Shown here piece after piece: positions 171 through 27,133 of a stretch of 64,000 bases of DNA (its first letter is position 1; each line of letters starts with the position of its first letter). The notes beneath the pieces were generated by a model. The model saw only the letters and a program-made list of their open reading frames with translations. It had not been told where the DNA came from and ran no database searches. The position numbers were made by a program, and so were the translations under genes. Origin of the DNA: Alphaproteobacteria bacterium (lineage in GTDB: Bacteria; Pseudomonadota; Alphaproteobacteria; JASGCL01); the NCBI GenBank assembly GCA_965262775.1, contig CBDHFT010000006.1:179883-243882 (forward strand), written 5' to 3'.

Positions 171-2025
171 TTGGCGGGCGGGGTTGATGTGGTGGTGCCC
201 GTTCCCGCGGATCAAAATTTCTTCTTCACCGCCACCGATAGCGATGCCAGCAATATAATTTATTCGGTCAGCGGCACCGAAGCCGCCAATTTCACCGTGG
301 CCAGCAACGTCGATGGTATGAAGGGTAAGGGTAAATTAACATATATTGGCGATTTGGATTATGAAACCACCAGCCACACCCACACCGTGACGGTGGTGGC
401 AACGTCGGGCAATAATAGTGTAACCCAATTGTTTATATTGACAGTAACGGGTTTGAACGACGAAGCGGCGGTTTGGACCAACAGCAGTGCCAACGGCACA
501 ATTTCAGAAAATAACGTGGCGGGGGTTGCGTTGGCAACATTTACGGCCACCGACCCCGACGGCGCGGGCGTAACATATTCATTAACGGGCACCGACGCCA
601 ATTTGTTCAGTTTGGATTCCAGCGGCGGTTTGCATCTTAAATCGGCGTTGGATTATGAAGGAACATACAATGGCCACAATGGCCATGTATTCAGCGTTAT
701 TGTCAATGCGTGGGGCACCGCGGGTGGCACGGCGGGCAGCGCGGCGATTGGTTTTGGTGCCCACGGCCACGACCAAATTGTTTGTGTTAGGTTTGGGTAA
801 TATTAATGAATTCGCCACGGGTTTTGTTGGAACGTTAAGAAGTGGTGTTGCCATTAGCGAAAATAATGCGGTCGGGGTAACGGTGGCGAATTTCCGTGCA
901 ACCGATGGCGATGGGGTGACCGTGGATTATAGCGTGAGTGGCACCGACCCGAGCTACTTCAGCGTTGATACAAATGGTAATTTAAAATTAAAATCAAGTT
1001 TGGATTTTGAAGATAGTGTTCATACGGCGAAAAATTACAGCGTGACGGTGGTTGCAAAATCGACCGACGCCAGCGCGGCGATTAGCAGTGTGTTTGTGTT
1101 GAGTTTGGGTAATGTGAATGATAATGCGACAACGATTGGCGCAATGCACACCAGTGGCGCGGCGGTGGCAAAATCGGCCGCGGTGGCGGGATTATCGGTG
1201 GCGCATTTTGAATTGAACGATACAGATGGAACGGGTTTTGAATATAATGTGTGGAACTTGGCTGGTTCCACCGATGCGAATTCTTTCAGCATGGACAGTG
1301 TTGGCGGATTGCATATCAAAACCGCCCTGACAACATCAACCAAGGCATTTTATACCATGGTGGTGGGTGGCCACGGAACAAGCGGCGGCGCGGGAACGGG
1401 CGCGGCGGCTACGTGGGTATCGCAAACATTTATTTTCAGCCTGAATACCAGCGCGCAATTGGCCGACCACACGGCCTATATCGACGGCACCACGGCGACC
1501 CACGCGGTGAATGTGGGTGGCATTATTGGCCATGACGATGCAGGGAATATTGATTATGCCAATGTGCAATTCCATGGTGTTAATTATACCGATAAAGTCA
1601 TTACGCGCAATGTTGAACCCGATGGTTTGCAATTAACCACGGTGGATTATGTGGTGCGCGGGATTAGCGATTTGGAATCTTTACGCCTAAGTTTTAACGG
1701 CTTCACCGATACGGATGGTACTAAACGTAACCATTGGTTCTTCGTCCAGGATGATGCCACGGACCACAGCGGGCATATTGTGTTTGACGCCGATGGGCAG
1801 AATGTGAATTTACACGCTTTGAACAATGGCGGTGGTTTAGCAACTTCTGACCAAATTAATTTATTGGCTGGTTCAAATTACGGCATTGACGGCGATTTTA
1901 CCAAACCAACTGATTTAAATTTGAACTTGGCTTCTGACCCATTACATCAAAATACGGCGGGGGCATTGACCTTCGACCAATTCCTGGCCCTCCTCGGCGG
2001 GAATAATCACATCAGTTTTGTTTAG
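171..2025 (+). pseudogene. 3' portion of a giant cadherin-like-repeat adhesin (probable T1SS substrate), interrupted by a frameshift near 730-790 (ORFs 171..800 and 655..2025)
   Basis: Recurring ~100-aa units are present, e.g. ISENN(V/A)(A/V)GV...F.ATD.DG..V.YS(L/V)(T/S)GTD...F(S)(L/V)D..G.L.LKS.LD(Y/F)E......Y.V.V.A.S...LF(I/V)L.(V/L).G(L/V/I)N(D/E). The two ORFs are in different frames, and the repeat register continues across the junction. The C-terminus is Gly/Asp-rich, with a non-cleaved tail typical of type I secretion substrates. Confidence 0.6.
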
Positions 2026-2224
2026 GCAAAACTGCGGCCTATCTATTCCATTATTCACGGTTATAAATTTTGTGCCCCCATGGGGGTGCAAATGAATTTG
2101 CTGGCAATAAAATTTTTGCTTGCAAAATCTTTTTGCAAAAGATAGAGAAGATGAATAGAAATAAGGCTAATTATAAAAAAAGAAAAATTCTATCATAAAT
2201 AATCATGAATGGCGGGTTAAAATA

Positions 2225-4711
2225 ATGGAAAAAAATACTAACAAATCTGGCAAACAACGCACCATGCGTGCGGTCGTCATTGGTGGCGGCGTGAACGGCG
2301 TTTCGGCATTGTATCATTTGGCTAAAAAAGGTTGGAAAGATGTTTTGCTTATCGAACGTACCGAATTGACCGCGGGGTCAACATGGCATGCGGCGGGGTT
2401 GTTGCCATTATTTAACATGAGTTATTCGGTTGGCCAGTTGCATCAATATTCGGTCGAATTGTATAAACGATTGGAAAAAGAAACGGGGCAAGAAGTTGGT
2501 TTTCACCAAACGGGTAATTTGCGATTGGCGCGGGTGCGCGACCGGTTGGATGAATATAAAAATTATCAATGCACCGCCGAAACCATCGGGGTGGAATGTC
2601 ATATCCTTGGGGTTGATGAAATTAAAAAACTGTGGCCATTGGCCAACATGGATGGTTTGATTGGCGCCCTGTGGCACCCAACCGACGGGCATATTGCCCC
2701 GGTCGATGTTACCATGGCGCTGGCGAAGGGCGCACGGGCGTTGGGCGCGACCATTGAACAAAATAAAATGGTGGTGGCGATAGAACGCACCGATTCCGCC
2801 GAATGGAAAATTATAACCGAAACCAAAGATGGCGAACGCGAAGAAATTTTGTGCGAACATGTTATTTGCGCCACGGGTAATTATGCCCGCCAAACCGCGT
2901 TGATGGTTGGGTTGCAAATTCCCGCCATTCCCGTTGAACACCAATATATTGTTTACGATGTCGACCCCGTGTTAAAAAAATACCGCGAAGCGGGGAATAA
3001 AGAATTGCCCATTTTGCGCGAACCCGATGCTCAATATTATTTCCGTGAAGAACGCAATGGTTGGATTTTAGGGCCATATGAACGCAATGCCCCCGCACGA
3101 TTTGTCGACGGCGTTGACCCAGGTTTTGAAAAAGATTTGTTCCCTGGCGATTTGGACCGTTTGTTACCGCATGTCGAGGCCGTTATGCACCGCGTGCCGT
3201 CGTTAGAACATGTTGGGGTAAAAAATGTGGTGAATGGTCCCATTTCTTACACGCCCGATGGCAACCCCATGGTCGGGCCCGCCTTTGGCTTGCCCAATTT
3301 TTGGATATCGGAAGGCCATAGTTTTGGCATCACCGCCGCGGGTGGCGCGGGGTGGCAATTGGCACAATGGATTGTTGATGGTCAACCGTCGGTCGACATG
3401 ATTGGCGTTGACCCACGGCGGTTTGGTGTGGTGTCGAAAAAATTTACCAAAATTAAAAACGAAGAAGCCTACGAACATGTTTTTATTATTCATTATCCGC
3501 ACGAAGAAAAACCAAAGGGTCGCCCCGCGAAAACCATGCCCTGTTATCGCGACATGGTGGATGCTGGCGCGGTGTGGGGACAAAATTTTGGCTGGGAGCG
3601 GCCGCTGTATTTTTCAACTTCGGACGATACCAAAAAAGACGATTGGTCTTTCCGCCGCCCCAAATGGTTTAACACCGTGGGGAATGAAGTGCGCAAAATG
3701 CGCGACGAAGTGGGGTTGATGGAACTTTCAACCTTCGCCAAATATATGGTGGAGGGGCGGGGGGCGCGGGCCTTCCTCGACCATATGGTCGCCAATGCTA
3801 TTCCAAAATCGATTGGCAAACTTAATTTGTGTCACGCGCTTTACCCGACGGGTTCTATCCGCGCCGAATTCACCATTTTGCGTTTGCCCGATGGTCATTA
3901 TGGCGAACGTTTTTATGTGGTGGGGCCGTCGCGCACCCATGACATCGATTGGGATTTCTTACAAAAAAATCACCCGAAGGATGGCTCGGTTTTCTTAACC
4001 GACATGACTACCACCAACGGCGTGTTTATTTTGGCGGGGCCAAAATCGCGCGATGTGTTGCAAGAATTGGCGGACGCTGATTTGTCGAACGGGGCTTTCC
4101 CCTGGCTTTCGGGGCGCGACATACCCGTTGGGTTTTGCCCCAATGTGCGGGCGTTGCGGGTTAACTTCGTTGGTTCGTTGGGGTGGGAATTGCATCACCC
4201 GATTGAATATCAATTGCACCTGTATCGTGCAATTATGGATGCTGGCAAAAAACATAACATCGGGCTGGTCGGCATGCGCGCCATGGAATCGATGAGGTTG
4301 GAAAAAACCTATCGCCTGTTTGGCACCGACCTTAATGCTGAAAATACTATATTGGAGGCCGACCTTGGCCGTTTTGTGCGCTTGAACAAAGGAAATTTTG
4401 TGGGGCAGGAGGCTTTGGTGAAGCAACAGGCGGCGGGCGTGCCACGCAAATATGTCACGATAGAAATTGACGCGGTCGACGCCGACAGTTTTGGTAACGA
4501 ACCAGTGTTTATTGGCAACGAAGTGGTGGGCCGCGGCACGGCGGGCGGTTATGGCCATTATGTTAAAAAATCGTTGATGTTAGGTTATGTCAACACCCAA
4601 CATGCCGCGGTTGGCACCAAATGCAAAGTGCGCATATTGGGCGAATTACGCGACGCCAAAATTGTCGCCGAGAGTCCGTATGATCCCGAGAACAACGCCC
4701 TGAGGGGGTAG
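2225..4711 (+). CDS. FAD-dependent dimethylglycine/sarcosine dehydrogenase family (DAO domain + GcvT-like folate-binding C-terminus)
   Basis: 828 aa. N-terminal Rossmann motif VVIGGGVNGVSALYHL. STWHAAG matches the covalent-FAD histidine motif of DMGDH/SarDH. The C-terminal half is an aminomethyltransferase-like (GcvT) fold: GRFVRLNKGNFVGQEAL. Confidence 0.85.
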   Translation: MEKNTNKSGKQRTMRAVVIGGGVNGVSALYHLAKKGWKDVLLIERTELTAGSTWHAAGLLPLFNMSYSVGQLHQYSVELYKRLEKETGQEVGFHQTGNLRLARVRDRLDEYKNYQCTAETIGVECHILGVDEIKKLWPLANMDGLIGALWHPTDGHIAPVDVTMALAKGARALGATIEQNKMVVAIERTDSAEWKIITETKDGEREEILCEHVICATGNYARQTALMVGLQIPAIPVEHQYIVYDVDPVLKKYREAGNKELPILREPDAQYYFREERNGWILGPYERNAPARFVDGVDPGFEKDLFPGDLDRLLPHVEAVMHRVPSLEHVGVKNVVNGPISYTPDGNPMVGPAFGLPNFWISEGHSFGITAAGGAGWQLAQWIVDGQPSVDMIGVDPRRFGVVSKKFTKIKNEEAYEHVFIIHYPHEEKPKGRPAKTMPCYRDMVDAGAVWGQNFGWERPLYFSTSDDTKKDDWSFRRPKWFNTVGNEVRKMRDEVGLMELSTFAKYMVEGRGARAFLDHMVANAIPKSIGKLNLCHALYPTGSIRAEFTILRLPDGHYGERFYVVGPSRTHDIDWDFLQKNHPKDGSVFLTDMTTTNGVFILAGPKSRDVLQELADADLSNGAFPWLSGRDIPVGFCPNVRALRVNFVGSLGWELHHPIEYQLHLYRAIMDAGKKHNIGLVGMRAMESMRLEKTYRLFGTDLNAENTILEADLGRFVRLNKGNFVGQEALVKQQAAGVPRKYVTIEIDAVDADSFGNEPVFIGNEVVGRGTAGGYGHYVKKSLMLGYVNTQHAAVGTKCKVRILGELRDAKIVAESPYDPENNALRG

Positions 4712-4814
4712 GTATTTTGTGGGTGGATTTTTCGACAGAACGTAATTTGCTGTTCGCAACAGATTTGCAAACCCCCTATAAATCGCTTATTAAATAACGT
4801 GGGGCAATGGGACA

Positions 4815-7577
4815 ATGGCAAAGAAAAAAATATTAGCAGAGAAGAACACGACACCAAGTCGTAATGAAATGAAAAGCAGAGCCTTGGCATTTCAAAAAAG
4901 GTGGCAAATTGCTTCTAGTGAGTCTTCTGATAAACAAACTTTTTATAATGAATTTTTTAATATATTTGGAATTGATAGAAAAAAAGTTGCTATCTTTGAA
5001 CAGCAGGTTGAAAAATTAAACAACCGCCGTGGGTCTATAGATTTGTTTTGGCCAAAAAAACTTTTGGTGGAGCATAAATCAAAAGGCGTTGATTTGAAGA
5101 AAGCGGTTGAACAGGCTTATGATTATTGCCTTAATATTGAAAATGATTTGTTGCCTGAATTTTTGTTGGTATGTGATTTTCATGAATTTCGGTTAATAGA
5201 AATTGCTAATAAGCAAAAATATTATTTTACATTGCCAGAATTGCATGAAAAATTGCATCTATTTAATTTTATGACCGATTATAAAAAACAAAACATCGCC
5301 GAGCTTGACCCAATTAATTTAAAAGCGGCAGAACGCATGGGCGATCTTTATGATAATTTAAAAAATGATAATGCTTCACAAAAAGATTTAGAATTATTTT
5401 TGGTGCGTGTGCTTTATTGTTTGTTTGCCGATGATACAGATATATTTAAGAAAAAGATATTTCATGATTTGATTGATAAAAAAACAAGGAGTGATGGGTC
5501 AGATGTTGGCGACAGATTAGCCCATTTATTTCAAACCTTAAATACGCCAAAAGAAAAAAGACCCAGCACTTTAGATTTTGATTTAAATGACTTTGATTAT
5601 ATTAATGGTAAATTGTTTGCCGACACGATTAACATTTTATCTTTTAGCACATGGACAAGAACATATTTGATAAATTGTTGTTCGTTTGTTGAATGGCGAA
5701 AAATATCGCCCGCTATTTTTGGTTCATTGTTTCAATCAATTGCTGATAAGAAAAAAAGACGAAGCACGGGGGCGCATTATACATCGGAAAAAAATATTAA
5801 ACGCACCATTGAACCATTATTCTTAAATGACCTATGGGCAGAATTTCACAAAATAAAAAACAATACTAAACAATTACATGATTTCCATGATAAATTGGCA
5901 TCATTATATTTTTTTGACCCCGCCTGTGGTTGTGGTAATTTTTTGGTGGTGGCTTATCGTGAATTGCGAAAATTAGAATTAGAAATTTTAAAAATATTAT
6001 ATCCCGACACTGAGATAAATAAAAAAATAGATGTTAATGGTTTGTCAAAAATAGATGTAGACCATTTTTATGGGATAGAGATTGAAGAATTCCCCGCCAA
6101 TATTGCCCAAGTGGCTTTGTGGCTAACCGACCATCAAGCAAATTTAGAATTGTCAGAATATTTTGGCCAATATTACGCTAGGATACCATTAAAAAAATCG
6201 CCCAATATTACCTGTGGCAATGCCCTGACGCTGGATTGGCAAAAAATTTTATCCGCCAAACAATGTTCTTATATCATTGGCAATCCGCCATTTATTGGTG
6301 CTCGCCAAAAAGATGGCATGCAATCGAAAGAAATGGAAGATATATTTTCAGGAATAAAAGATTGGGGTAATTTGGATTATGTAACAGCATGGTATAAAAA
6401 AGCCGCCGAATATATCCATGGCACAAAAATTAAGGTGGGGTTTGTTGCCACCAATAGCATTACACAGGGTTTGCACGTTGGTATATTATGGAATAATTTA
6501 ATCAATCAACATGGTATTACCATTCATTTTGCCCATCAAACCTTTGCTTGGTCAAATGAAGCCACGGGTAAGGCGGCAGTTTATGTGGTGATAATCGGTT
6601 TTGCCAATTTTGATAGTGATAAAAAAATTCTATATGAATATGATGATATTAAGGGCGACCCAAATCAATCGCTAGTAAAATATATTAGTCCTTATTTATC
6701 TTCTAACAAAATGGATATTGCAATTAGCAGTCGTGAGAAGCCTTTATGCGATGTGCCAAAAATGTCGTTTGGTAGTATGCCCCGTGATGGTGGTTTTTTA
6801 ATTATAGAAAATGAGAAAGAAAAAGAACAATTGATAAATCATAATCCATTGGTAATAAAATATATTAAAAATTATATTGGGGCAGATGATTTTATCAATG
6901 GTTATAAAAGATATTGTTTATGGTTGGTGGATGCTGAGCCAAGTGATTTAAAAAAAATGCCCTTGGTGATGGAAAGAATAAAAAAAGTAAAAGAATTTCG
7001 GTTGGCGAGCAAAAAAACTGCAACCAGAAAATTTGCTGAAACTCCATCGTTATTTTGCGAACAACGACCCGCAAAAAGTAATTATTTATTAGTGCCACGG
7101 GTGTCATCGGAAAGGCGAAAATATATTCCCATAGGCTTTTTTAGCAAAGATAATATTGTAGCTGATAGTTGCTTAGCTATTGGCAACGCCACCCTCTACC
7201 ATTTTGGCATTTTGACTTCTGCCATGCACATGGCATGGGTAGCGCAAGTTTGTGGACGATTAAAATCAGATTTCCGTTATTCAAAAGATATTGTTTATAA
7301 CAATTTTCCATGGCCAAAGAATCCGCCCACAGACAAAATAAAAAAAATTGAATCCATCGCCCAAAGGATTTTGGATATTCGTAAAAAATATGAAAATAAA
7401 AATACCCTTGCCGATTTGTATGACCCCAATACCATGCCAAGCGATTTGTTAAAAACCCATGAGGATTTAGACAAATTGGTTGATGATTGCTACGGCTCCG
7501 CTGGTTTTGCCAGCAACGGCGATCGCCTCACCCATTTATTTAATTTGTATGAAGAATATATAAAAAATAAAAATTAA
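4815..7577 (+). CDS. MmeI-family Type IIL (IIG) restriction-modification enzyme, with endonuclease, gamma-class N6-adenine methyltransferase and target-recognition domains fused
   Basis: 920 aa, close to MmeI at 919 aa. The N-terminal nuclease D...E.K motif is intact (IDLFWPKKLLVEHKSKG). MTase motif I is FFDPACGCGNFLVVAYRELR and motif IV is IIGNPPFIGARQ. Long stretches are collinear with MmeI as I recall it (DPINLKAAERMG, ISPAIFGSLFQSI, GAHYTSE, FYGIEIEEFPANIAQVALWLTDHQ, TNSITQG, IIGF, YLLVPRVSSERRKYIPIGF, LYDPNTMPSDLLKTHEDLDKLVD). The gene is visibly more AT-rich than its flanks. Confidence 0.85.
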   Translation: MAKKKILAEKNTTPSRNEMKSRALAFQKRWQIASSESSDKQTFYNEFFNIFGIDRKKVAIFEQQVEKLNNRRGSIDLFWPKKLLVEHKSKGVDLKKAVEQAYDYCLNIENDLLPEFLLVCDFHEFRLIEIANKQKYYFTLPELHEKLHLFNFMTDYKKQNIAELDPINLKAAERMGDLYDNLKNDNASQKDLELFLVRVLYCLFADDTDIFKKKIFHDLIDKKTRSDGSDVGDRLAHLFQTLNTPKEKRPSTLDFDLNDFDYINGKLFADTINILSFSTWTRTYLINCCSFVEWRKISPAIFGSLFQSIADKKKRRSTGAHYTSEKNIKRTIEPLFLNDLWAEFHKIKNNTKQLHDFHDKLASLYFFDPACGCGNFLVVAYRELRKLELEILKILYPDTEINKKIDVNGLSKIDVDHFYGIEIEEFPANIAQVALWLTDHQANLELSEYFGQYYARIPLKKSPNITCGNALTLDWQKILSAKQCSYIIGNPPFIGARQKDGMQSKEMEDIFSGIKDWGNLDYVTAWYKKAAEYIHGTKIKVGFVATNSITQGLHVGILWNNLINQHGITIHFAHQTFAWSNEATGKAAVYVVIIGFANFDSDKKILYEYDDIKGDPNQSLVKYISPYLSSNKMDIAISSREKPLCDVPKMSFGSMPRDGGFLIIENEKEKEQLINHNPLVIKYIKNYIGADDFINGYKRYCLWLVDAEPSDLKKMPLVMERIKKVKEFRLASKKTATRKFAETPSLFCEQRPAKSNYLLVPRVSSERRKYIPIGFFSKDNIVADSCLAIGNATLYHFGILTSAMHMAWVAQVCGRLKSDFRYSKDIVYNNFPWPKNPPTDKIKKIESIAQRILDIRKKYENKNTLADLYDPNTMPSDLLKTHEDLDKLVDDCYGSAGFASNGDRLTHLFNLYEEYIKNKN

Positions 7578-17306: not shown

Positions 17307-18839
17307 TTACAGTTGCGTCGCGGGCAACTTGATAGGATAACGTTTGCGCAATTCAACATCCAAGGCTGGGTCAATGAAGGAATGCGGCGGCATGGCAAGA
17401 ATTTTTTCTTTGATGGCGCGCGCCTTTTCCAAAGCGGTTGGCTTGTTATTGGCTTCCCATTCTTTGGGTGATGAGCGGTCAAAGGTTTTGGGATAAAAAT
17501 AATCCTTTTGCATAACGCGTAAAGTTTGGTCGGCCCCCAAGAAATGCCCTGGGCCGTCGATGCAAACCGAACGGATGGTGTCTAAACTCAATAATTCTTC
17601 GGTGACCTCTATGCCACGAATGATACGGCTGGTCGAACCCAAAACATCATTGTCCAATATCAAACTTTCCAAGCAGAACCCGAGCAAACTGGCGTGCATG
17701 CCCGCCGATTCGTAAACCAAATTAGCCCCCGATTGCGCCACAATGGCGTGGTTATAGGCCTTTTCTGCGCCAGCCTGGTAATCAGGAATTTTTGAATCGG
17801 CCATGCCCGAAGCAACGGCGTTGATAAGCCCAAGATGCCTGCCAATTTCTGCTACGCCAGCCATCAACAATGATTGTTCGGCCGAACCGCCGCTCATGGC
17901 GCCCGTGCGCAGGTCGCTAACAAATGGCCAAGCACCAAACATGGCGGGTGCCCCTGGCTTCACGGCGTTAACATAAAATAATCCCGCCAAAACTTCGGCG
18001 GCGGATAGGGTTACCGAGCCCACCAAGGTGGCGGGGCTGGTCGCACCCGCCTGGCCCGCTGATATTAATAAAATAGGCATGCCTTCCAACGCGGCGCGTT
18101 CCAAGCAACGGCAGGCATCTTGCGCAAATTTTAATGGCGGCACCACAAAGCAACAGGATTGCGACACGAAAGGACGCGCCAGCCATTGTTCTTTGCCACC
18201 CGCAATTTCATGCAACATGGCCAAGGATAAATCAAAATGTTTGGTATCAACCCACGAAGTGCCAACATGTTTGCGCGAACCGCGCACCGAGGCATAGCAG
18301 GTGTTAAAATCCATATCCAATGGGTCGGGCAAGTCACGTGGCACCAACGAGCGTTGATAAAAATGGATGTTATCCATGTGGTCGCAGATTTTGGATGAAT
18401 GATAAAGATCTTCCAACACCGATTCGCGATATTCGTTGGTTAGGGCGTCGACCATATGCACCGCGGCACCCGCCGTGCCGTAATAAACGCGGTCATCGTA
18501 GGGGTCTAAATCCCATTCGGGGTCCAAGCCAAATAATGTAAATTTTTTATTGGCAACGGCAAGCATATCCAGCACCGCATTTTTGGGGAAACAAAGACGG
18601 TTATTTTTAACAACCGCGCCTATTTTTTGGCAATATTCTATGGTCGAGGGTAAGGCCTCGGCAAAGCCGATATTTTCCAATATGTTTAGAGCGCTTTCGA
18701 CAATTTTTGATCTTTCTTCGGCGGTAAATAATTTTAAACGCCCCGATTTCATGCCACGCCAAATGGGTTGCAGGTCGGTTTGTAAGGGGGCTTGTCTTGC
18801 GGCAACGCGCGATGCGCGGCCGCCCATTCTTAGTGACAT
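17307..18839 (-). CDS. MttB-superfamily methyltransferase without pyrrolysine (glycine-betaine/quaternary-amine:corrinoid methyltransferase-like, MtgB-type)
   Basis: 510-aa uninterrupted ORF with a TIM-barrel MttB fold. A long collinear region (ILENIGF...HMVDAL...SGGSAEQSLLMAGVAEIGRHLGL...YESAGMHASLLG) is typical of trimethylamine-methyltransferase-family proteins. There is no in-frame amber codon. Confidence 0.75.
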   Translation of the reverse strand: MSLRMGGRASRVAARQAPLQTDLQPIWRGMKSGRLKLFTAEERSKIVESALNILENIGFAEALPSTIEYCQKIGAVVKNNRLCFPKNAVLDMLAVANKKFTLFGLDPEWDLDPYDDRVYYGTAGAAVHMVDALTNEYRESVLEDLYHSSKICDHMDNIHFYQRSLVPRDLPDPLDMDFNTCYASVRGSRKHVGTSWVDTKHFDLSLAMLHEIAGGKEQWLARPFVSQSCCFVVPPLKFAQDACRCLERAALEGMPILLISAGQAGATSPATLVGSVTLSAAEVLAGLFYVNAVKPGAPAMFGAWPFVSDLRTGAMSGGSAEQSLLMAGVAEIGRHLGLINAVASGMADSKIPDYQAGAEKAYNHAIVAQSGANLVYESAGMHASLLGFCLESLILDNDVLGSTSRIIRGIEVTEELLSLDTIRSVCIDGPGHFLGADQTLRVMQKDYFYPKTFDRSSPKEWEANNKPTALEKARAIKEKILAMPPHSFIDPALDVELRKRYPIKLPATQL

Positions 18840-19027: not shown

Positions 19028-20182
19028 TTATTGCGCAAAAATAAATAGGCCTTTTTTTTCTATCACCGCCCGCACTTTATCCCCAACCTTAAAACGCCGC
19101 GGGTTGGCATGGTCGGTAAGCAAACGACTATGAATATGGAACGGGGTGTTGGGCGATGTATTGTCGGTATAGGCATCGTTATGGCATTGCCAATGGATGA
19201 GCAGGTGATTGCCCAAAAACCTTACCTCCACCACTTCGCCTGTTATCTCGCTGGCTATTTTTGTTGCTGTGGTTTTTTTTATTTCTTCTCCCATGCTAAG
19301 ATTGATAAGGTCGATGGCGTCCGCCCTTATAACCACCTCAACCATTTTGTTGCCAGCGTCTTTTGTTAAGGTTTCGGACGACAATGTGCCAAGCGGGGTT
19401 ACGACCTTTCCTTGGCTCACAACGCCTGCAAAACGATTAACCTCCCCAAATACTGACGCAACGAAGGGACTTTTGGGATGATAATATAGGTCGAGGGGTT
19501 GGCCTTGCTGTTGTAATTTTTGTTCGTGCAATATGGCCATGGTGTCGCTCATGAACATGGCTTCCTCCGCCGAGTGCGTAACCAATAGGGTGGCGATTTT
19601 GTTTTCTTCTAAAAAATGGAGGAGCCAATCGCGCAACTCATCGCGCACCCGTTCGTTAAGCGATGAAAAGGGCTCATCCATCAATATTAATTTGGAGCCT
19701 GGCGCCAAGGCACGCGCCAAGGCCACCCGCTGTTGTTCGCCACCCGACAATTGGTGGGGGTAACGATCGAACAGCTGCTCTAAGCCAACTTTTTTCAATA
19801 AATTCTGCACCAAAGATTTTTTATCAAGCGCGGTTAATTGTCGATTGCGTTGGATGCCGAAAGCAATATTGTCATAAACATTCAAATGGGGAAACAATGC
19901 GATGTCTTGAAACAACAGCCCCAAACCGCGTTGTTCGGGCGGTAAAACAAAACGCTGGTCCGAAACCAATTCGCCGTTGATGAAAATTTGTCCGCTGGTT
20001 GGTTTTTCTAAACCCAGGGCCAAGCGCAATATGGTGGTTTTGCCCGACCCCGAAGGCCCAAGCAAAGACATGACGCTGTTGCTGGGCACCGAAAAAGATA
20101 CGCCCTGTAATATTTTTTCTTTACCGTTGGATTTGCGATAAGAAAAATGGACATCGCGAAATTCTAAAATATTTTTTGCCAT
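19028..20182 (-). CDS. fbpC: ABC transporter ATP-binding protein, Fe3+/polyamine type, with a C-terminal TOBE domain
   Basis: Walker A GPSGSGKTT, Q-loop, signature LSGGEQQRVALARAL, Walker B LILMDEPFSSLD-like and H-loop. The C-terminal ~120 aa form a TOBE/MOP-like domain. Confidence 0.9.
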   Translation of the reverse strand: MAKNILEFRDVHFSYRKSNGKEKILQGVSFSVPSNSVMSLLGPSGSGKTTILRLALGLEKPTSGQIFINGELVSDQRFVLPPEQRGLGLLFQDIALFPHLNVYDNIAFGIQRNRQLTALDKKSLVQNLLKKVGLEQLFDRYPHQLSGGEQQRVALARALAPGSKLILMDEPFSSLNERVRDELRDWLLHFLEENKIATLLVTHSAEEAMFMSDTMAILHEQKLQQQGQPLDLYYHPKSPFVASVFGEVNRFAGVVSQGKVVTPLGTLSSETLTKDAGNKMVEVVIRADAIDLINLSMGEEIKKTTATKIASEITGEVVEVRFLGNHLLIHWQCHNDAYTDNTSPNTPFHIHSRLLTDHANPRRFKVGDKVRAVIEKKGLFIFAQ

Positions 20183-20183
20183 C

Positions 20184-22013
20184 TTAATCCTCCCGCCTCA
20201 ACCAATGATGTTTTGCCAACCAAATGGATATCATGCTTACCAAAATAATAAGCAAGCCAGGTAAGGCCGCCATTTTTATACGCTCATCACTGACGAAGGT
20301 GAAGAGCCTTAAAGATAAAGTTTCCACGCCAAACGGCCGCAGCACCAGGGTGATGGGCAGTTCCTTGATAATTTCGATGAAGGCAATAAGAAAACCAGAA
20401 AACAAGGCGGGGCGCAGCAGCGGCAGGTGAACAAACCCCAAAACCCCGCCGATGGCCTTGGCCGACCAATTTTTTATTTTTTTCTTGCCGTTATATTTTT
20501 TCGCCATGGGCAGAGAGTTCGTTAAATGAGTATAAGAATTTTTACGCGCGGCATGGCCAAGAAAATTACCAAAAAAAGCAATGGGCGTTTCGCCCAACAC
20601 CCGCGCCGCATGGTCGATGTTGAGGCTGATGGCGCGATAACCCGCGCTGATGGCGCCAAAACAACTGGCTGAAAATTTTGCCAAATAACCATAAAATAAT
20701 AAACTAAGCATGGCGATGTTATAATAGGTAGCATTTTGCGAAGCGTCATCTGCTTGAGAAAAGAAGCCCCTTACCAATGCAAAGCCAAGGATTAACATTC
20801 CCAACCCCAGCACCACCCCAGGCATGGCGTAACCAATCACCAACGGCAACCGCAGCAGCGGCATATGCCATTGCCGTTCGGCAAAACCGATGATAAGCGA
20901 AAAAAATAAAATACTTAGCCCCGCAACAGTGGCAAAACCAAAAGTAGTCAGCAGGGCGGGCAGGGTGTCGGTGATATTGGCAAGCCAGTCTTGTAAATAA
21001 TTGGTGGCGCTCATTTGCAAGCCATGCCACAGTGGCGCGATGAACCAAGATAACAAAGATAGGAATGGCAAACCAATCGCGAAAAATAATAATATACCCA
21101 AGCAAGTTAGTAAGGCAATATTGCCCATCCTTGATAAGGGTTCGGGGCGATGATAACTTGCGCCGCGCCCCGTTGTTAGGGTGCTTTTCCGTTGCAGTCG
21201 CCACCCCATCAGATGGAAATTTTGGATGATGTAGTCGAAGATTAAAAATAACGATACCAACAGCAGAATGATAAAACAAAAATAACGAGCATAATTGATT
21301 TGCCCCAAATTAAGCCACAGGTCAAACATACCCATCGACAGGGTTTTGACCGCAAAAAAATTCATCGCGCCGTAATCGGCCATGACCTCCAACCCCACCA
21401 AAATAAAACCCGCCATCATTTGCGGCAACATCAGCGGTAAAAATAAACGCCAGAAGCAACTGGACAGTGGAAACCCCAGCACCCGTGCCATTTCAAGGTT
21501 GCGGGTTACATGAAGCGAAGATGACAAAAAGGAGCGTGCCAACAAATAAACATAGGGGTAAAAGCAAAGCGATAAAACCACCGCGGCCAATCGCCAATCG
21601 CGCGGATTAAAAAAACCTAACCAGTTGTAAAGCCATTGCCCCAATATTCCATTGGGTGATAATTGTTCGACATAAACCATGGCAACGATATAAGGCGGCG
21701 TGGCAAAGGGCATCAGCACCAGCCAGGATAATATTTTTTTCCCTGGAAAAGAAAAAAATTCAAAAAACCAAGCCAAGCCCATGCCAATGATAACCGCCAG
21801 GCCGCCCGTTGCCAGCACCATTTTGCAGGTGGTGAGGAAGTAAGGCAGAATAATCGCGGCATCGATATTAACCAGCAGGTCGTCATGCTGGGGTTGGTTT
21901 GCGCCACCCGCAAGCAATAAAAAAAATAACGGCAGAAGTGGTAAAAAACTTAGGAGTAATAATGCAAATTTGGTGGGAATAATGCGGCTGGCAGGGGGAG
22001 ATGACTTTTTCAT
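20184..22013 (-). CDS. fbpB: Ferric-iron ABC transporter permease with duplicated transmembrane domains
   Basis: 609 aa with about 12 TMs in two repeated ABC-TM1-family modules, each carrying an EAA-like loop. It is adjacent and co-directional with fbpC, overlapping its end. Confidence 0.8.
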   Translation of the reverse strand: MKKSSPPASRIIPTKFALLLLSFLPLLPLFFLLLAGGANQPQHDDLLVNIDAAIILPYFLTTCKMVLATGGLAVIIGMGLAWFFEFFSFPGKKILSWLVLMPFATPPYIVAMVYVEQLSPNGILGQWLYNWLGFFNPRDWRLAAVVLSLCFYPYVYLLARSFLSSSLHVTRNLEMARVLGFPLSSCFWRLFLPLMLPQMMAGFILVGLEVMADYGAMNFFAVKTLSMGMFDLWLNLGQINYARYFCFIILLLVSLFLIFDYIIQNFHLMGWRLQRKSTLTTGRGASYHRPEPLSRMGNIALLTCLGILLFFAIGLPFLSLLSWFIAPLWHGLQMSATNYLQDWLANITDTLPALLTTFGFATVAGLSILFFSLIIGFAERQWHMPLLRLPLVIGYAMPGVVLGLGMLILGFALVRGFFSQADDASQNATYYNIAMLSLLFYGYLAKFSASCFGAISAGYRAISLNIDHAARVLGETPIAFFGNFLGHAARKNSYTHLTNSLPMAKKYNGKKKIKNWSAKAIGGVLGFVHLPLLRPALFSGFLIAFIEIIKELPITLVLRPFGVETLSLRLFTFVSDERIKMAALPGLLIILVSMISIWLAKHHWLRRED

Positions 22014-22126: not shown

Positions 22127-22690
22127 TTATTTTACAATAACTTTTCCCTTCATACCATGTTCTTCGTGCCCAGGTATAAGACATATTATCATAACTTCGC
22201 CCGCTTCAATGAAATGCCAATAGAGGTTAGCCGTTTTGCCAGGTTCTATTTCTACCTCAAAGCCTTCGGGATTTTCCTCTTCCTCGCCGTCGGCTATTTC
22301 TTCTTTGGCATAATCAAGGGTGGCCTTGTCGCCAATGACAAATTCATGCTTGATGCTGGTTTCATTTTTGACAACAAAATTGATTACTTCGTTCTTTTTT
22401 ACCTTCACCACATTGGGCACGAATTTGTATGTGCCAGCGTGGATGGTTATCACCACTTCGCGGGCTGTTTTGGCTTCGGGGCTTTTTTTATCAACGGGCG
22501 CGCCAAAATCATAACGAGTCGTCCAATTGGGAACATGGGGGTGTTCGGCCGCGCTCTTAGCAGCGTCCAGATTTTTTTTAGATTCAGCATAGGTTGAGGC
22601 CACAGCATGCTCGGCGAAGGGTAGGTAAGTTTGCAAGGGGCTTGTTGATAGAATAACCCCCAGCAAACCAATCACAAAATTGTTTTTCAT
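22127..22690 (-). CDS. Periplasmic cupredoxin (type-1 blue-copper, plastocyanin/pseudoazurin-like) embedded in the fbp operon
   Basis: Signal peptide. C-terminal copper-ligand loop C-L-I-P-G-H-E-E-H-G-M (Cys..His..Met) plus an upstream His (KHEFVIGD). Beta-sandwich spacing typical of cupredoxins. Confidence 0.7.
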   Translation of the reverse strand: MKNNFVIGLLGVILSTSPLQTYLPFAEHAVASTYAESKKNLDAAKSAAEHPHVPNWTTRYDFGAPVDKKSPEAKTAREVVITIHAGTYKFVPNVVKVKKNEVINFVVKNETSIKHEFVIGDKATLDYAKEEIADGEEEENPEGFEVEIEPGKTANLYWHFIEAGEVMIICLIPGHEEHGMKGKVIVK

Positions 22691-22702
22691 TATTTAATAT
22701 TT

Positions 22703-23785
22703 TTATTTGTCATTAAAATTAACCGACAGCAAAGCTTTAATCACAAGCGGATAAAACTTGTAGGCTTCGACCATAGCTTTGTCATCGCTGGTAAATTTTT
22801 TACCATTGAGGGAGATAAGATTTTTTTGCCAATGGGCCGCAGGCGACACAGGATATTCATTGTTTTTTGTCATGAAATATTCTTGCGATGAGGGCGTTAA
22901 CAAAAATTGGGCAAGTTGTTCGGCCTGTTTCTTGCGTTTGCTATTTTTCATGATAGCAACGCCCGATATATTGGTGGCGACACCTTCACCAATTTTATTA
23001 CCAACCAACGATACCAAACGTGGTGTGGCTTTGGTTTCAAGGTCAGGAACCTCTTTCTTCAACAAACCATAATAATAGCTATTGACGACGGCAATTTTAC
23101 ACTGACCGCTATACACCAATTTTATTTGGTCGCGGTCAACCCCGCCTGGTTTTTGCACCAAGTTGGATTTTAATTTTTTAAGATAATCCTTCATTTGCGA
23201 ATCATTCATGTAAACATGCAAGCCCGAAAATAATCCTAAATTGTAAGGATGAAGACCATCGCGCATACAAATTTGACCGCGCCATTTGGGGTCGGCCAAT
23301 TGCTTCATGTTGACTATTTCTTCGGCGGGGGAATTCTTGGCTATAACAATAATCCGCGCGCGATAGGAAACGCTGGTCCAGAGGTTATCGCTATCAACAA
23401 AATTTTTCGGAATGCTCTTGGTAACCGATGCGGGAATGGGATTATTAAACCCAGCGTCCTTTAGCTGTTGCACCATGGCAATATTTTGGGTGATAACAAT
23501 ATCGGCGGGGCTGTTGGCACCTTCTTGCTTGATACGTTCGACCAAGCTGTCGCCACCATAATAAGTGCGGACATTAACTTTATTTTTTTTCGCAAATTCG
23601 GCGAGCAGGGGTTTCAGCAAATCTTCCTTACGGTTGGTGTATACCACCAGATCATTATCACCGTGGTCATGCCCCGCATGGGCATGGGCGGTTTGGGTGG
23701 TTGGTAGCAAGGACGCTAAAACTGGCAGCAGCAAACCACCTAATAAACAACGTTGTAATTTTTTATGATTGAATTTTTTTGACAT
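22703..23785 (-). CDS. fbpA: Fe3+ ABC transporter periplasmic substrate-binding protein (FbpA/AfuA-like) with a His-rich N-terminal tag
   Basis: Signal peptide, then HAHAGHDHGD. Type II solute-binding fold similarity to ferric-binding proteins (LVVYT, IVITQN, PKNF.D.DN.W). It is the first gene of the fbpA-cupredoxin-fbpB-fbpC operon. Confidence 0.75.
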   Translation of the reverse strand: MSKKFNHKKLQRCLLGGLLLPVLASLLPTTQTAHAHAGHDHGDNDLVVYTNRKEDLLKPLLAEFAKKNKVNVRTYYGGDSLVERIKQEGANSPADIVITQNIAMVQQLKDAGFNNPIPASVTKSIPKNFVDSDNLWTSVSYRARIIVIAKNSPAEEIVNMKQLADPKWRGQICMRDGLHPYNLGLFSGLHVYMNDSQMKDYLKKLKSNLVQKPGGVDRDQIKLVYSGQCKIAVVNSYYYGLLKKEVPDLETKATPRLVSLVGNKIGEGVATNISGVAIMKNSKRKKQAEQLAQFLLTPSSQEYFMTKNNEYPVSPAAHWQKNLISLNGKKFTSDDKAMVEAYKFYPLVIKALLSVNFNDK

Positions 23786-23921
23786 GATTTTTTTTAACAG
23801 TGTTTATAGGAAGCCCCTTTATTTATATAGTAGTAATACAATACTATATAAAAATTGTCAATTATCATATAAAGACAAAACAGATATTTTGTAATCATGG
23901 CGATGAATGATTTTTAAAATA

Positions 23922-23950
23922 AGCGGATGAGTCGAAAAGACCCATCCGCT
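23922..23950 (-). terminator. Rho-independent terminator candidate downstream of the trans-sulfuration gene
   Basis: On the minus strand, AAGCGGAUGGGUCUUUUCGACUCAUCCGCUU is followed by AUUUUAAAAAUCAU. The stem is 9 bp and lies about 200 nt past the stop. Confidence 0.4.
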
Positions 23951-24150
23951 TTATCCGTTTGCCCGACCTGATATTAGGAGAGAAGAGGTATCGGGGCAAA
24001 GGAATCTTGAGATAAATTCGCTTGCCTGCTGCGGCCTCTATGATTATTCAATATTTATGCCAGCTGCGGGGACAGATATTGTGCCAGCTGCCGGCTTAGG
24101 CAAGACCATGGCATGGCACCAGCGTGATTTTTAATGAAGGCAAGGAGGGG

Positions 24151-25308
24151 TTAAGCTAAGGCCTGTTCCCAATCACGAATAAGATCCTCGTGATTTTCTA
24201 AACCCGTGGAGAAACGGATAAGGTCGGGCGGCACGGTGGAACCTTCCCCCTCGACCGTATACCGATGTTCGGCCAAGGATTCGGGGCCACCGAGCGAGGT
24301 TGCGCGGCGTATCATTTTTAAATTGCGCACCACTTTCAATGCTTCGGCTGCACCGCCGTTCACATGGATCCCCATCAACCCACCAAATCCACCGTGCATT
24401 TGTTTTTGTGCCACGGCATAATTGGGGTGGCGGGGTTGGCTGGCGTGCCTAATCAATGATATTTTTTTATGCTGGCTTAAGAAATCGGCAACCTGTGCCG
24501 CATTATCCGAATGTTTTTTAACCCGCAGGAATAATGTTTTCAGGCTGCGGGTTAATAAAAAACTGCTGAAGGAATCAAGCACCCAACCAAATAAAAATCG
24601 TTGGTCTTTTATACGCAACCATTGTTCGGTTTCGGCCTTGCTGGTCACCGTGCCCGCCAGCAAGTCATTATGCCCACCCAGAAATTTGGTTGCCGAATGC
24701 ACCACGTAATCGGCACCCAGATCCAGCGGGCGGGTTAGGATGGGCGTTGCCGCCGTGCTGTCGACGCATAATTTTGCCCCAACCGCCTGGCAATGTTGCG
24801 CGGCCTTGGCAATATCAACAATATGATTCATGGGGTTCGATGGAACCTCGACCCATACCAAAGCTGGCTTATGTTGTTTGATGGCTGATGCCAAGGCTTC
24901 GTCGTCGCCACTTTTAACCCATATGACTTCGATACCATAACGGTTGAGGTGTTGCGTCGCCAATTTGGGCAGGCCATAATAAAGCGAATCCTGGACCAAG
25001 CATTTGTCGCCTTGCGACAGGGCAAGGAAGATGGCACTCATCGCGGCGGCACCCGAAGGATAAAGCAATGTTTCAAAGCCCCCTTCCAAATGGTTGAGCA
25101 TGGCAGAACATTGGTCAAGGCTGGCATTGTCATCGCGCACATAGCCACGCTCGTCATGTTTTTCATATTGATCATTACGGAGGTAGGTTGTGCCCGTGTA
25201 GATAGGCGGGTGGATATTCCGCGTTTTTTCGTCATAAAAATATAACCCTTGGACAATTTCGCTTTCCAAAGATAAACCAGCGGGGCGGGGGGGTAATTTA
25301 CGGGGCAT
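24151..25308 (-). CDS. PLP-dependent trans-sulfuration enzyme (cystathionine gamma-synthase / beta-lyase / O-succinylhomoserine sulfhydrylase family)
   Basis: Cys/Met-metabolism PLP family. SATKFLGGHNDLLAG carries the PLP lysine in the SxTK context. Overall collinearity with MetB/MetC/MetZ. Confidence 0.8.
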   Translation of the reverse strand: MPRKLPPRPAGLSLESEIVQGLYFYDEKTRNIHPPIYTGTTYLRNDQYEKHDERGYVRDDNASLDQCSAMLNHLEGGFETLLYPSGAAAMSAIFLALSQGDKCLVQDSLYYGLPKLATQHLNRYGIEVIWVKSGDDEALASAIKQHKPALVWVEVPSNPMNHIVDIAKAAQHCQAVGAKLCVDSTAATPILTRPLDLGADYVVHSATKFLGGHNDLLAGTVTSKAETEQWLRIKDQRFLFGWVLDSFSSFLLTRSLKTLFLRVKKHSDNAAQVADFLSQHKKISLIRHASQPRHPNYAVAQKQMHGGFGGLMGIHVNGGAAEALKVVRNLKMIRRATSLGGPESLAEHRYTVEGEGSTVPPDLIRFSTGLENHEDLIRDWEQALA

Positions 25309-26659: not shown

Positions 26660-27045
26660 AAAAAGAAGGGTTTCTGTTGCTGGGAAACCCTTCAAGACCC
26701 CACCTATCGGGTATGAGCCGACAGGAATTCTGAGATGCACTCTTAAGCCACTCTAGGCAGCAAGAGCAACACCCCTTTCATTGTCATTGGCATTTATAGC
26801 CTTTGAAGCTCTCTTAACCCCTTTATTATAAATAATATCAAGGCGGCGAACTTAATACCGAACGCAAATCATAACCTTTATCACGCCTGTCTAGCCTGTT
26901 TCACCCCCATAATTTTACCCTGTCACTTTGATTTTTTAAGTAAGCCCACAAGTTTTTTTTATGGTGGAGGTGCCGAGTACTGCCCTCGGGTCCAGAACGT
27001 CTATGCCGTTTGATTTGATAGCGTCATAGTCCTGCCAAAGCAGAA
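26660..27045 (-). ncRNA. ssrA: Two-piece (circularly permuted) tmRNA gene ssrA: acceptor piece, spacer, then coding piece encoding tag ANDNERGVALAA
   Basis: Read on the minus strand. The acceptor piece ends ...CUCGGCACCUCCACCA (CCA at plus 26963-26965). The coding piece begins GGGGGUGAAACAGGCUAGACAGG (plus 26908 downward), compare E. coli GGGGCUGAUUCUGGAUUCGACGGG. GGGGGUG pairs with CACCUCC, giving a G3-U70 alanine identity pair. The tag reading frame is GCC AAU GAC AAU GAA AGG GGU GUU GCU CUU GCU GCC UAG, giving ANDNERGVALAA (plus 26753-26791). A 9-bp stem plus U-tract terminator lies at 26664-26691. Upstream promoter is TTGACA-17-TATATC. There is no ORF of 60 aa or longer in this 480-bp gap. 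Confidence 0.85.
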
Positions 27046-27053
27046 CAATATAT

Positions 27054-27082
27054 GATATACTACGCCATGAAAAAAATGTCAA
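27054..27082 (-). promoter_or_regulatory. Sigma70-type promoter of ssrA (TTGACA, 17-bp spacer, TATATC) on the minus strand
   Basis: The minus strand reads TTGACAtttttttcatggcgtagTATATCatatattg. -35 lies at plus 27077-27082. Confidence 0.5.
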
Positions 27083-27133
27083 TCTGCGCCCCATAACCAC
27101 TTCGCCGCTTAACCAGCCTGTTTATCATCAACC

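Follow-up and report, generated by a model that had tools for sequence, protein, structure and literature searches.

A CopI-like cupredoxin with an acidic loop, encoded beside a ferric FbpA-type binding protein in a few uncultured Alphaproteobacteria

This report concerns a gene for a small cupredoxin that is found among the genes of a ferric iron transporter of the ATP-binding cassette (ABC) type. It lies in a 64-kb stretch of DNA (hereafter the window: 64,000 nucleotides (nt) of contig CBDHFT010000006.1, assembly GCA_965262775.1, positions 179,883 to 243,882) from a member of the Alphaproteobacteria; coordinates below are those of the window unless another contig is named. Four genes lie head to tail on the minus strand. 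Read 5' to 3', these are the gene for a substrate-binding protein (SBP) of the ferric FbpA/FutA type (22703..23785, 360 amino acids (aa); phmmer against the PDB and Pfam SBP_bac_11, SBP_bac_1, SBP_bac_8 and SBP_bac_6); the gene for an apparently secreted, single-domain type-1 cupredoxin, which we assign to a CopI-derived subfamily with an acidic loop (22127..22690, 187 aa; an open reading frame (ORF) supported by Pfam); the gene for an FbpB-like ABC permease with two fused domains (20184..22013, 609 aa; Pfam and an internal repeat); and the gene for an ABC ATPase with a TOBE-like C-terminus (19028..20182, 384 aa; Pfam ABC_tran). An earlier note on this DNA had described a cupredoxin gene placed between an FbpA-like SBP gene and a permease gene, in the same orientation and with tight spacing. 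The placement and orientation are as described, and the spacing is tight between the SBP and cupredoxin genes (12 nt), but not between the cupredoxin and permease genes (113 nt); the permease and ATPase genes are separated by 1 nt.

Judging by its sequence, the 187-aa protein is a genuine type-1 cupredoxin, and its binding of copper is predicted. It scores above the gathering thresholds of two Pfam families: Cupredoxin_1, with 31.9 bits where 27 are required, and Copper-bind, with 31.7 bits where 21.2 are required. The plastocyanin-like loop and the upstream histidine pointed out in the earlier note can both be recognized: the loop C170-LIPG-H175-EEHG-M180 (22151..22183, minus strand) has the spacing C-x4-H-x4-M, and the upstream ligand would be His115 within IKHEFVIG (22346..22348, minus strand). 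All four ligands (H115, C170, H175 and M180) are invariant in 96 of 96 aligned sequences, i.e., the window protein and 95 relatives, all orthologues included. The structure prediction that the note had proposed as a check agrees with this assignment. The AlphaFold2 model built on the 96-sequence alignment has a predicted local distance difference test score (pLDDT) of 83.8, mostly above 90 in the core (residues 60-187), and exhibits the cupredoxin topology. In it, H115 stands where a strand begins, and the Cys-His-Met loop joins strands 164-169 and 181-186, the final two. The closest solved folds (Foldseek, probability 1.00) are auracyanin, the B. anthracis Cupredoxin_1 protein (4HCF), azurin and AcoP. 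As to secretion, the N-terminus MKNNFVIGLLGVILSTSPLQTYLPFAEHAVA reads as a Sec signal peptide predicted to span residues 1 to about 31 (22598..22690, minus strand; low pLDDT), with cleavage after PFA or AVA. The ratio of nonsynonymous to synonymous substitution rates (dN/dS), estimated against an orthologue of 86% identity, is 0.215, compared to 0.085-0.143 for the neighbouring genes; the cupredoxin gene is maintained by purifying selection and is less tightly constrained than its neighbours.

The best curated (NCBIfam) family for the protein is CopI, with 67.9 bits for NF047895 (cut-off 200) and 71.1 bits for NF051440 (cut-off 280). Searching 1.84 billion representative proteins with a profile turned up 2354 relatives at E<=0.001, only five of them at E<=1e-30. 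A word-indexed search of 5.8 billion clusters gave six proteins at 250-311 bits, the next hit being an ordinary CopI-like protein at ~101 bits. Sequence comparison thus assigns the cupredoxin to a very rare offshoot of CopI of which six proteins were found (hereafter the subfamily). Its members score 32-75 bits with the CopI models, and ordinary relatives with a His/Met loop score 70-149 bits, likewise below the cut-offs. A scan of genome contigs returned only the close relative described below and one ordinary CopI-like gene next to msrB in a Pelagibacteraceae single-amplified genome, and a scan of metagenome contigs with the subfamily patterns returned no additional locus. The subfamily is confined to a few uncultured alphaproteobacterial genomes.

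What distinguishes these proteins is an acidic helix-loop-strand, D126-E149, DYAKEEIADGEEEENPEGFEVEIE (22244..22315, minus strand), which stands where CopI has its His/Met-rich Cu(I) segment. Counted over residues 116-146 and given per 32 residues, the mean content of the six subfamily proteins is 11.7 Asp and Glu, 0.67 His and 0.17 Met, versus 6.4, 2.7 and 3.3, respectively, in 90 ordinary relatives; the window protein has neither His nor Met there. Position 145 is Glu in all six and Met in 48 of the 90, and position 147 is Glu in all six and His in 48 of the 90. The residues E130, E131, A133, G135, E136, E145 and E147 are invariant in the subfamily down to 40% identity; the pattern can be written as KEEIA-D/E-GEEEE ... 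E-V-E. Column frequencies reveal a further invariant motif near the N-terminus, W56-TTRYDFGA-P65 (22496..22525, minus strand), in which W56 and Y60 are specific to the subfamily and F62-G63-x-P65 is common to CopI-like proteins as well. The ligand loop itself contains two unusual residues, E176 and H178. The latter occurs in five of the six subfamily proteins, the same position being Ala in 85 of the 90 other relatives. E176, directly after the ligand H175, occurs only in the four cupredoxins encoded next to the SBP gene; standalone orthologues and most of the wider family have an aromatic residue there. The protein contains E176 and E177 adjoining the copper ligand H175 and, in addition, the conserved Glu-rich loop. 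The scaffold and the redox centre are CopI-like, with the copper-recruiting His/Met segment replaced by poly-Glu.

The flanking transporter, assigned by residue alignment, is of the ferric FbpA type, as the earlier note had supposed. In phmmer searches against the PDB, the SBP matches 1Q35 (M. haemolytica FbpA, 7.5e-48), 1Y9U (7.2e-45), 2PT1 (2.6e-42) and 6G7N (2.9e-42), and B. pertussis FbpA, Synechocystis FutA1 and FutA2, and Trichodesmium FutA are matched as well; for the M. haemolytica FbpA and the cyanobacterial FutA1, FutA2 and IdiA the E-values range from 1e-48 to 1e-39, with the tyrosine triad and the arginines aligned. Specifically, residues Y142, Y198 and Y199 of 1Q35, the iron ligands of that protein, and R10 and R101, its carbonate anchors, align with identical residues of the SBP (within HPYN, NSYYYG, YTNRKE and SYRARI), and these motifs are present in all seven SBPs of the clade described below. 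A role of the transporter as a copper importer was considered and rejected, as the tyrosines and arginines of the ferric type are all conserved. In the permease, Pfam BPD_transp_1 is matched at residues 74-263 with 25.1 bits, just below the cut-off of 26.4, and the second half is matched at 524-595; an internal repeat is visible as well. Permease orthologues are encoded in the contigs L012, L014 and L015. The ATPase matches Pfam ABC_tran at 2.8e-33 and falls below the equivalog cut-offs of the NCBIfam ferric, polyamine and sulfate models. Since no NCBIfam equivalog cut-off is reached, we treat the SBP, permease and ATPase as family members and not as named orthologues. A Lys-rich insertion (…GHAARKNSYTHLTNSLPMAKKYNGKKKIKNWSAKAIGG…) was observed in the permease at residues of about 470-525. 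It precedes the final conserved motif of the second half, and L015 has a comparable one.

The SBP also carries a His-rich tag, HAHAGHDHGD, at its predicted mature N-terminus (residues 34-43, after a predicted signal peptide; 23657..23686, minus strand). The earlier note had mentioned it as a metal-binding tag; its presence and position hold, and a more specific origin can be suggested. The N-terminal Cu(II)-binding peptide of R. gelatinosus CopI is DAGHDHGSAHAGAHAHDA, and the two have AGHDHG in common (PMC13308877). By this analogy, we think that the tag more probably resembles the Cu(II) site at the N-terminus of CopI than that it binds metals in a generic way. N-terminal His clusters are widespread in ordinary relatives of the cupredoxin (at least three His per ten residues in 27 of the 90 and at least two in 68), and the subfamily cupredoxins lack them, the window protein having just H-P-H. 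The tag is HAHEGHDHGDHD in L001 and HEGHDH in L003; in L002 it is probably HKHHGHHG after correction of a frameshift in an A9 run. It follows the adjacency of the cupredoxin gene, being found in four of four adjacent members of the SBP clade and in none of the three non-adjacent ones. Outgroups lack it, as do the mature N-termini of all others among the 120 nearest SBP homologues.

The SBP clade comprises seven sequences with 51-93% identity, and the next homologues are ordinary Fe(3+) SBPs at about 41%. When the four-gene arrangement was sought in related genomes, it was found in only one close relative, the 1.63-Mb chromosome of an Alphaproteobacteria metagenome-assembled genome (MAG; L001), where the order is the same as in the window (metB-like gene, SBP, cupredoxin, permease and ATPase) and the cupredoxin gene adjoins the SBP gene. 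The SBP-cupredoxin pair extends further. It is intact in relatives at 51-62% identity, L002-L004, where a metB-like gene, the SBP gene, the cupredoxin gene after a 2-nt gap and a convergent copper amine oxidase gene are found, and the permease and ATPase genes are not adjacent. The remaining lineages are arranged differently. In L012, the order is metB-like gene, glycosyltransferase, SBP, a secreted PLD/Nuc-like gene, permease and ATPase, and no cupredoxin was found. In L014 (metB-like gene, SBP, permease) and L015 (SBP, permease), 146-193 nt without a gene separate the SBP from the permease; the cupredoxin is encoded between rpmA and hemF in contigs that we associate with them, L007 for L014 (same sample, matching GC content) and L010 for L015 (same samples, similar GC content). 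The cupredoxin is thus missing from otherwise syntenic operons in L012, L014 and L015, which the earlier note had named in advance as a finding against its proposal. Its idea of a four-component system does not hold as a conserved unit: these three contigs break the arrangement, and the four-gene operon is not the conserved unit because in two lineages the orthologous cupredoxin is encoded elsewhere, standing alone.

Nevertheless, the cupredoxin subfamily and the SBP clade travel together within the lineage: the same samples contain both, at matching GC content, and their identities have the same rank order. The standalone position is probably ancestral, since the deepest two branches in the tree of the SBPs show it, and the move beside the SBP gene is probably derived. 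In that tree the clade uniting the window, L001, L002, L003 and L012 has a bootstrap of 92%, with L012 placed inside it at 71%; this placement would mean a later loss of the cupredoxin in the L012 lineage.

Several observations on these contigs can be added. The PLD/Nuc-like protein that fills the SBP-permease slot in L012 (9146-9748) is a secreted protein of 200 aa (PLDc_2, 4.8e-27), and the L012 SBP is among those without a His tag. The copper amine oxidase gene converging on the cupredoxin gene lies at 8629-10528 in L002, 8543-10456 in L003 and 7508-9445 in L004, and in all three it is followed by a gene for a second, PotD-like SBP. The two most divergent subfamily cupredoxins, at 5935-6438 in L007 and 536-1282 in L010, are flanked by rpmA (ribosomal protein L27) and hemF (oxygen-dependent coproporphyrinogen oxidase), and the L27 proteins of the two organisms are 74% identical; in R. 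gelatinosus, HemN has been reported as a target of copper. In L002, a 135-nt tandem repeat (6387-6647, 1.9 copies, 98% identical) lies between the metB-like and SBP genes, and several genes of this contig are split (the metB-like gene, the amine oxidase gene and, at the A9 run, the SBP N-terminus), which looks like homopolymer errors of a long-read assembly. The MAG containing L003 (GCA_030054115.1, JASGCL010000004.1) is labelled Hydrotalea sp. (Bacteroidota); the contig is probably mis-binned or mislabelled, since its gene order and its 66%-identical SBP match the alphaproteobacterial MAGs.

Considering the intact copper centre, the replacement of a soft, copper-recruiting loop by a hard carboxylate one, and the position of the gene directly after that of a basic, Fe(III)-specific SBP, it is tempting to propose that the CopI-derived cupredoxin oxidizes Fe(II) and feeds Fe(III) to the SBP. 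We favour this explanation tentatively, giving it somewhat less than an even chance, and every catalytic step in it is one that we infer. The carboxylate loop would bind periplasmic Fe(II), and the Cu(II) centre would accept one electron from it; the Fe(III) formed would be caught by the adjacent basic SBP with its tyrosine triad and then imported through the fused permease and the ATPase. The His-rich N-terminus of the SBP would be a Cu(II) site of the CopI type that keeps the cupredoxin loaded with copper or, alternatively, tethers the two proteins. Further observations support the pairing. The His tag is found only beside a cupredoxin gene, and the SBP clade and the cupredoxin subfamily occur together. 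The mature proteins have complementary charges (pI about 5.4 and net charge -7 for the cupredoxin, pI about 9.4 and net charge +13 for the SBP), and the adjacency of their genes, with 2-12 nt between them, is kept in L002-L004 where the permease and ATPase genes are no longer neighbours. In its most specific form, the proposal describes a single-copper oxidase derived from CopI by a Met/His to poly-Glu change of the loop, which hands Fe(III) to an FbpA-type SBP that has itself acquired a CopI-type Cu(II) module; this fuller version we consider possible but doubtful.

A number of facts weigh against iron oxidation. The wider family is otherwise linked to copper throughout, and its best model is CopI. 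Fusion partners of the family are CopD, CusF, a P-type ATPase fragment and Metal_resist, all of them related to copper, and the search for Rosetta-stone fusions to iron-binding domains gave none. Upstream of the SBP gene and of the standalone cupredoxin genes, the scores for a Fur box, a 7-1-7 Fur site and the Irr-ICE element are within the background. From the single type-1 copper, electrons have no obvious way to O2, and no candidate acceptor emerged. The acidic patch can equally be explained, by analogy with plastocyanin, as the place where a basic redox partner docks. The cupredoxin is dispensable at the slot between the SBP and permease genes, which holds the PLD-like gene in L012 and nothing in L014 and L015, where the SBP and permease genes follow each other directly. 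The two most divergent cupredoxins, of L007 and L010, stand alone with no iron gene nearby, and they already have the acidic loop. Finally, the joint variation of the tag, the adjacency and E176 is suggestive, but it is statistically weak because it traces to one evolutionary event or, at most, two.

Of the other explanations, copper handling survives best, although we regard it as unlikely. According to it, the protein would buffer, oxidize or deliver copper in the periplasm as CopI-like proteins do, the SBP tag would scavenge Cu(II), and the link to a ferric SBP would reflect cross-talk between copper and iron, for example the protection or metallation of periplasmic sites or the supply of cuproenzymes. 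The best family match and the copper-related fusions (the P-type ATPase and heavy-metal resistance domains among them) fit it directly. The tag has the AGHDHG of the Cu(II)-binding peptide of CopI, and the His module present in 27 of the 90 ordinary relatives appears to sit here on the partner SBP instead. The copper amine oxidase encoded convergently in L002-L004 is periplasmic, and the ferric SBP FutA2 of Synechocystis affects copper supply (PMC4284471). However, the His/Met segment reported to be crucial for the copper resistance conferred by CopI is gone, with no Met and no His left in the loop; the CopI cut-offs are widely missed (68-71 versus 200-280 bits); and the 64-kb window contains no copper efflux, sensor or chaperone gene.

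It is also conceivable, though we think it improbable, that there is no functional link and that an ordinary electron-transfer cupredoxin, its acidic patch docking to some basic partner, is encoded by a gene that merely came to lie in the stretch between SBP and permease, a site tolerant of insertions. Acidic patches act in docking in plastocyanin. The spacer does appear permissive: an unrelated PLD/Nuc-like gene occupies it in L012, it is empty in L014 and L015, and in the window 113 nt still precede the permease gene. The standalone orthologues of L007 and L010 and the weaker constraint on the cupredoxin (dN/dS of 0.215 versus 0.085-0.143) point the same way. On the other hand, the junction with the SBP gene is 2-12 nt and outlasts the split from the permease and ATPase genes in L002-L004. 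The His tag and E176 were gained only when the genes are adjacent, and it is specific glutamates, beyond the net charge, that are invariant.

A reductive release, in which the cupredoxin would give an electron to the SBP-bound Fe(III) and so free the iron for the permease, is suggested by the adjacency only and by the general need to release tightly bound Fe(III) from FbpA-type proteins; it leaves the Glu-rich loop unexplained, and we rejected it as very improbable on redox potentials, since type-1 copper (roughly +0.2 to +0.7 V) lies far above FbpA-bound iron, whose Fe(III)/Fe(II) potentials are reported as negative, and Cu(I) would have to pass its electron uphill to the bound Fe(III).

Returning to the proposed Fe(II) oxidation, a comparison with described systems shows what is shared and what is not. 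CopI of Rubrivivax gelatinosus, Vibrio and Pseudomonas has the same F-G-x-P segment, single cupredoxin domain and His-Cys-His-Met site, and the helix-loop insertion after its first His ligand is also present in the window cupredoxin. Three metal sites are described in CopI (PMC13308877). Besides the His-Cys-His-Met centre there are a His-rich Cu(II) site at the N-terminus, which is variable, and a conserved internal segment rich in His and Met, which is crucial to the resistance against copper and has been proposed as a Cu(I) site. The window protein differs in having the poly-Glu segment instead of that internal segment and in being partnered with an iron SBP rather than with copper genes.

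FtrB of Brucella, Bordetella and Burkholderia is likewise a small periplasmic protein of cupredoxin fold within an iron-uptake operon; in the Fe(II) importer FtrABCD it has been put forward as a ferrous oxidase that depends on Cu(II), an activity demonstrated in vitro, and conserved glutamates are its proposed iron ligands (PMC11966278). In contrast to the window protein, FtrB lacks the His-His-Cys type-1 site and binds copper by Asp and His. Its partner is a permease of the Ftr1 type; no Ftr1-family gene is present in the operon described here, where the partners are the FbpA-type SBP and the ABC permease and ATPase. Searches of the PDB with phmmer at E<=1 gave no match of the cupredoxin to either FtrB or EfeO. 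The comparison with EfeO, from which the earlier note argued, remains one of analogy and not of homology: both show a cupredoxin fold tied to bacterial iron uptake, but the family here is a separate, CopI-like lineage, and E. coli EfeO (7WGU) comes only at rank 50 of the fold search. The cupredoxin domain of EfeO is, like FtrB, a precedent for a cupredoxin ferrous oxidase in an iron importer; it is fused to an M75 domain and works with the Ftr1-type permease EfeU and the peroxidase EfeB.

The change from Met/His to Glu in the window cupredoxin parallels the contrast between Fet3p, where acidic residues by the type-1 site select Fe(II), and CueO, where a Met-rich insert selects Cu(I). Fet3p (partner of Ftr1p) and CueO have a trinuclear copper cluster that reduces O2, whereas the present protein has a single copper site from which no path to O2 is evident. 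Rusticyanin, which acts in an Fe(II) oxidation chain, has the identical C-x4-H-x4-M spacing and a locally similar loop (CQIPGHAATGM versus CLIPGHEEHGM). It is, however, an acid-stable respiratory carrier and not the partner of an uptake system, and the window cupredoxin scores 32.8 bits with the NCBIfam rusticyanin model (cut-off 146.7). In the FbpA/FutA/IdiA class, our literature searches gave no described member with a cupredoxin partner; the known copper link for this class of ferric SBPs is the cross-talk between FutA2 and copper (PMC4284471).

Concerning the surroundings of the four genes, a gene for a metB-like enzyme dependent on pyridoxal phosphate (24151-25308) lies upstream of the SBP gene. 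It is followed by a strong terminator hairpin (23921..23951, minus strand), the arms of which vary among lineages with their complementarity kept, and for this reason we believe that the SBP gene begins its own transcription unit. A TTGACA at 23856..23861 (minus strand), noticed by reading the sequence, might serve the operon promoter as its -35 hexamer; a promoter consensus scan did not list it. Two hairpins are predicted between the stop codon of the metB-like gene and this promoter (23905-24010, minus strand; dG -36.5 kcal/mol, z -5.96), the second of which is the terminator and the first of which presents a CU-rich loop, CCUCUUCUCUCCUAAUAU. The pair is also found in L001 (at about 6700-6800) and in the equivalent regions of L002 and L003, and a block CTCCTCTTCTCTCCTA in it is invariant across four lineages. 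The region could be a small RNA derived from the 3' untranslated region or one of an anti-Shine-Dalgarno type; an Rfam search of the spacer between the metB-like and SBP genes gave no significant match.

The rest of the window is ordinary chromosome, with the dcw cell-division cluster, SUF genes, lpxB, recG and a two-piece (permuted) transfer-messenger RNA of the alphaproteobacterial type (26662-27086, minus strand, 180 bits), which assigns the organism to the Alphaproteobacteria. A second cupredoxin, the rpmA-hemF locus and a copper amine oxidase gene are all absent from the window. Rfam matches PYLIS_3, the pyrrolysine insertion element of mttB, at 17705-17804 (minus strand, 42.8 bits) inside an uninterrupted ORF of 510 aa from the MttB family; as no stop codon interrupts the frame, the protein is presumably an MttB homologue of the kind without pyrrolysine. 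A type IIL restriction-modification enzyme of the MmeI family is encoded at 4815-7577 (plus strand). Between lpxB and the metB-like gene, L012 carries an insertion of two restriction-modification systems (447-4726), which indicates that the chromosomal neighbourhood is variable.

We found no description in the searchable literature of a cupredoxin partnered with an FbpA-type SBP or placed in an iron ABC operon. The kinds to which its parts belong, the CopI family and cupredoxin-assisted iron uptake, are already known. For ferric ABC importers of the FbpABC/FutABC type, a binding protein, a permease and an ATPase are believed to suffice, and the way in which Fe(III) is generated or delivered to the periplasmic binding protein is poorly defined. 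If the cupredoxin is indeed a dedicated partner, it would extend the logic of “oxidize, then transport”, as in Fet3p-Ftr1p, EfeUOB and FtrABCD, to ATP-driven ferric uptake. The subfamily would then also be a compact natural experiment on the change of substrate in a metallo-oxidase, where the loop goes from Met/His to Glu with the CopI scaffold otherwise conserved. Should the version with the acquired CopI module be true, it would present a natural re-specification of the metal substrate together with the relocation of a metal-binding module onto a partner protein. If copper handling proves correct instead, the locus would provide a direct molecular link between a ferric SBP and copper, which so far is only physiological, through FutA2.

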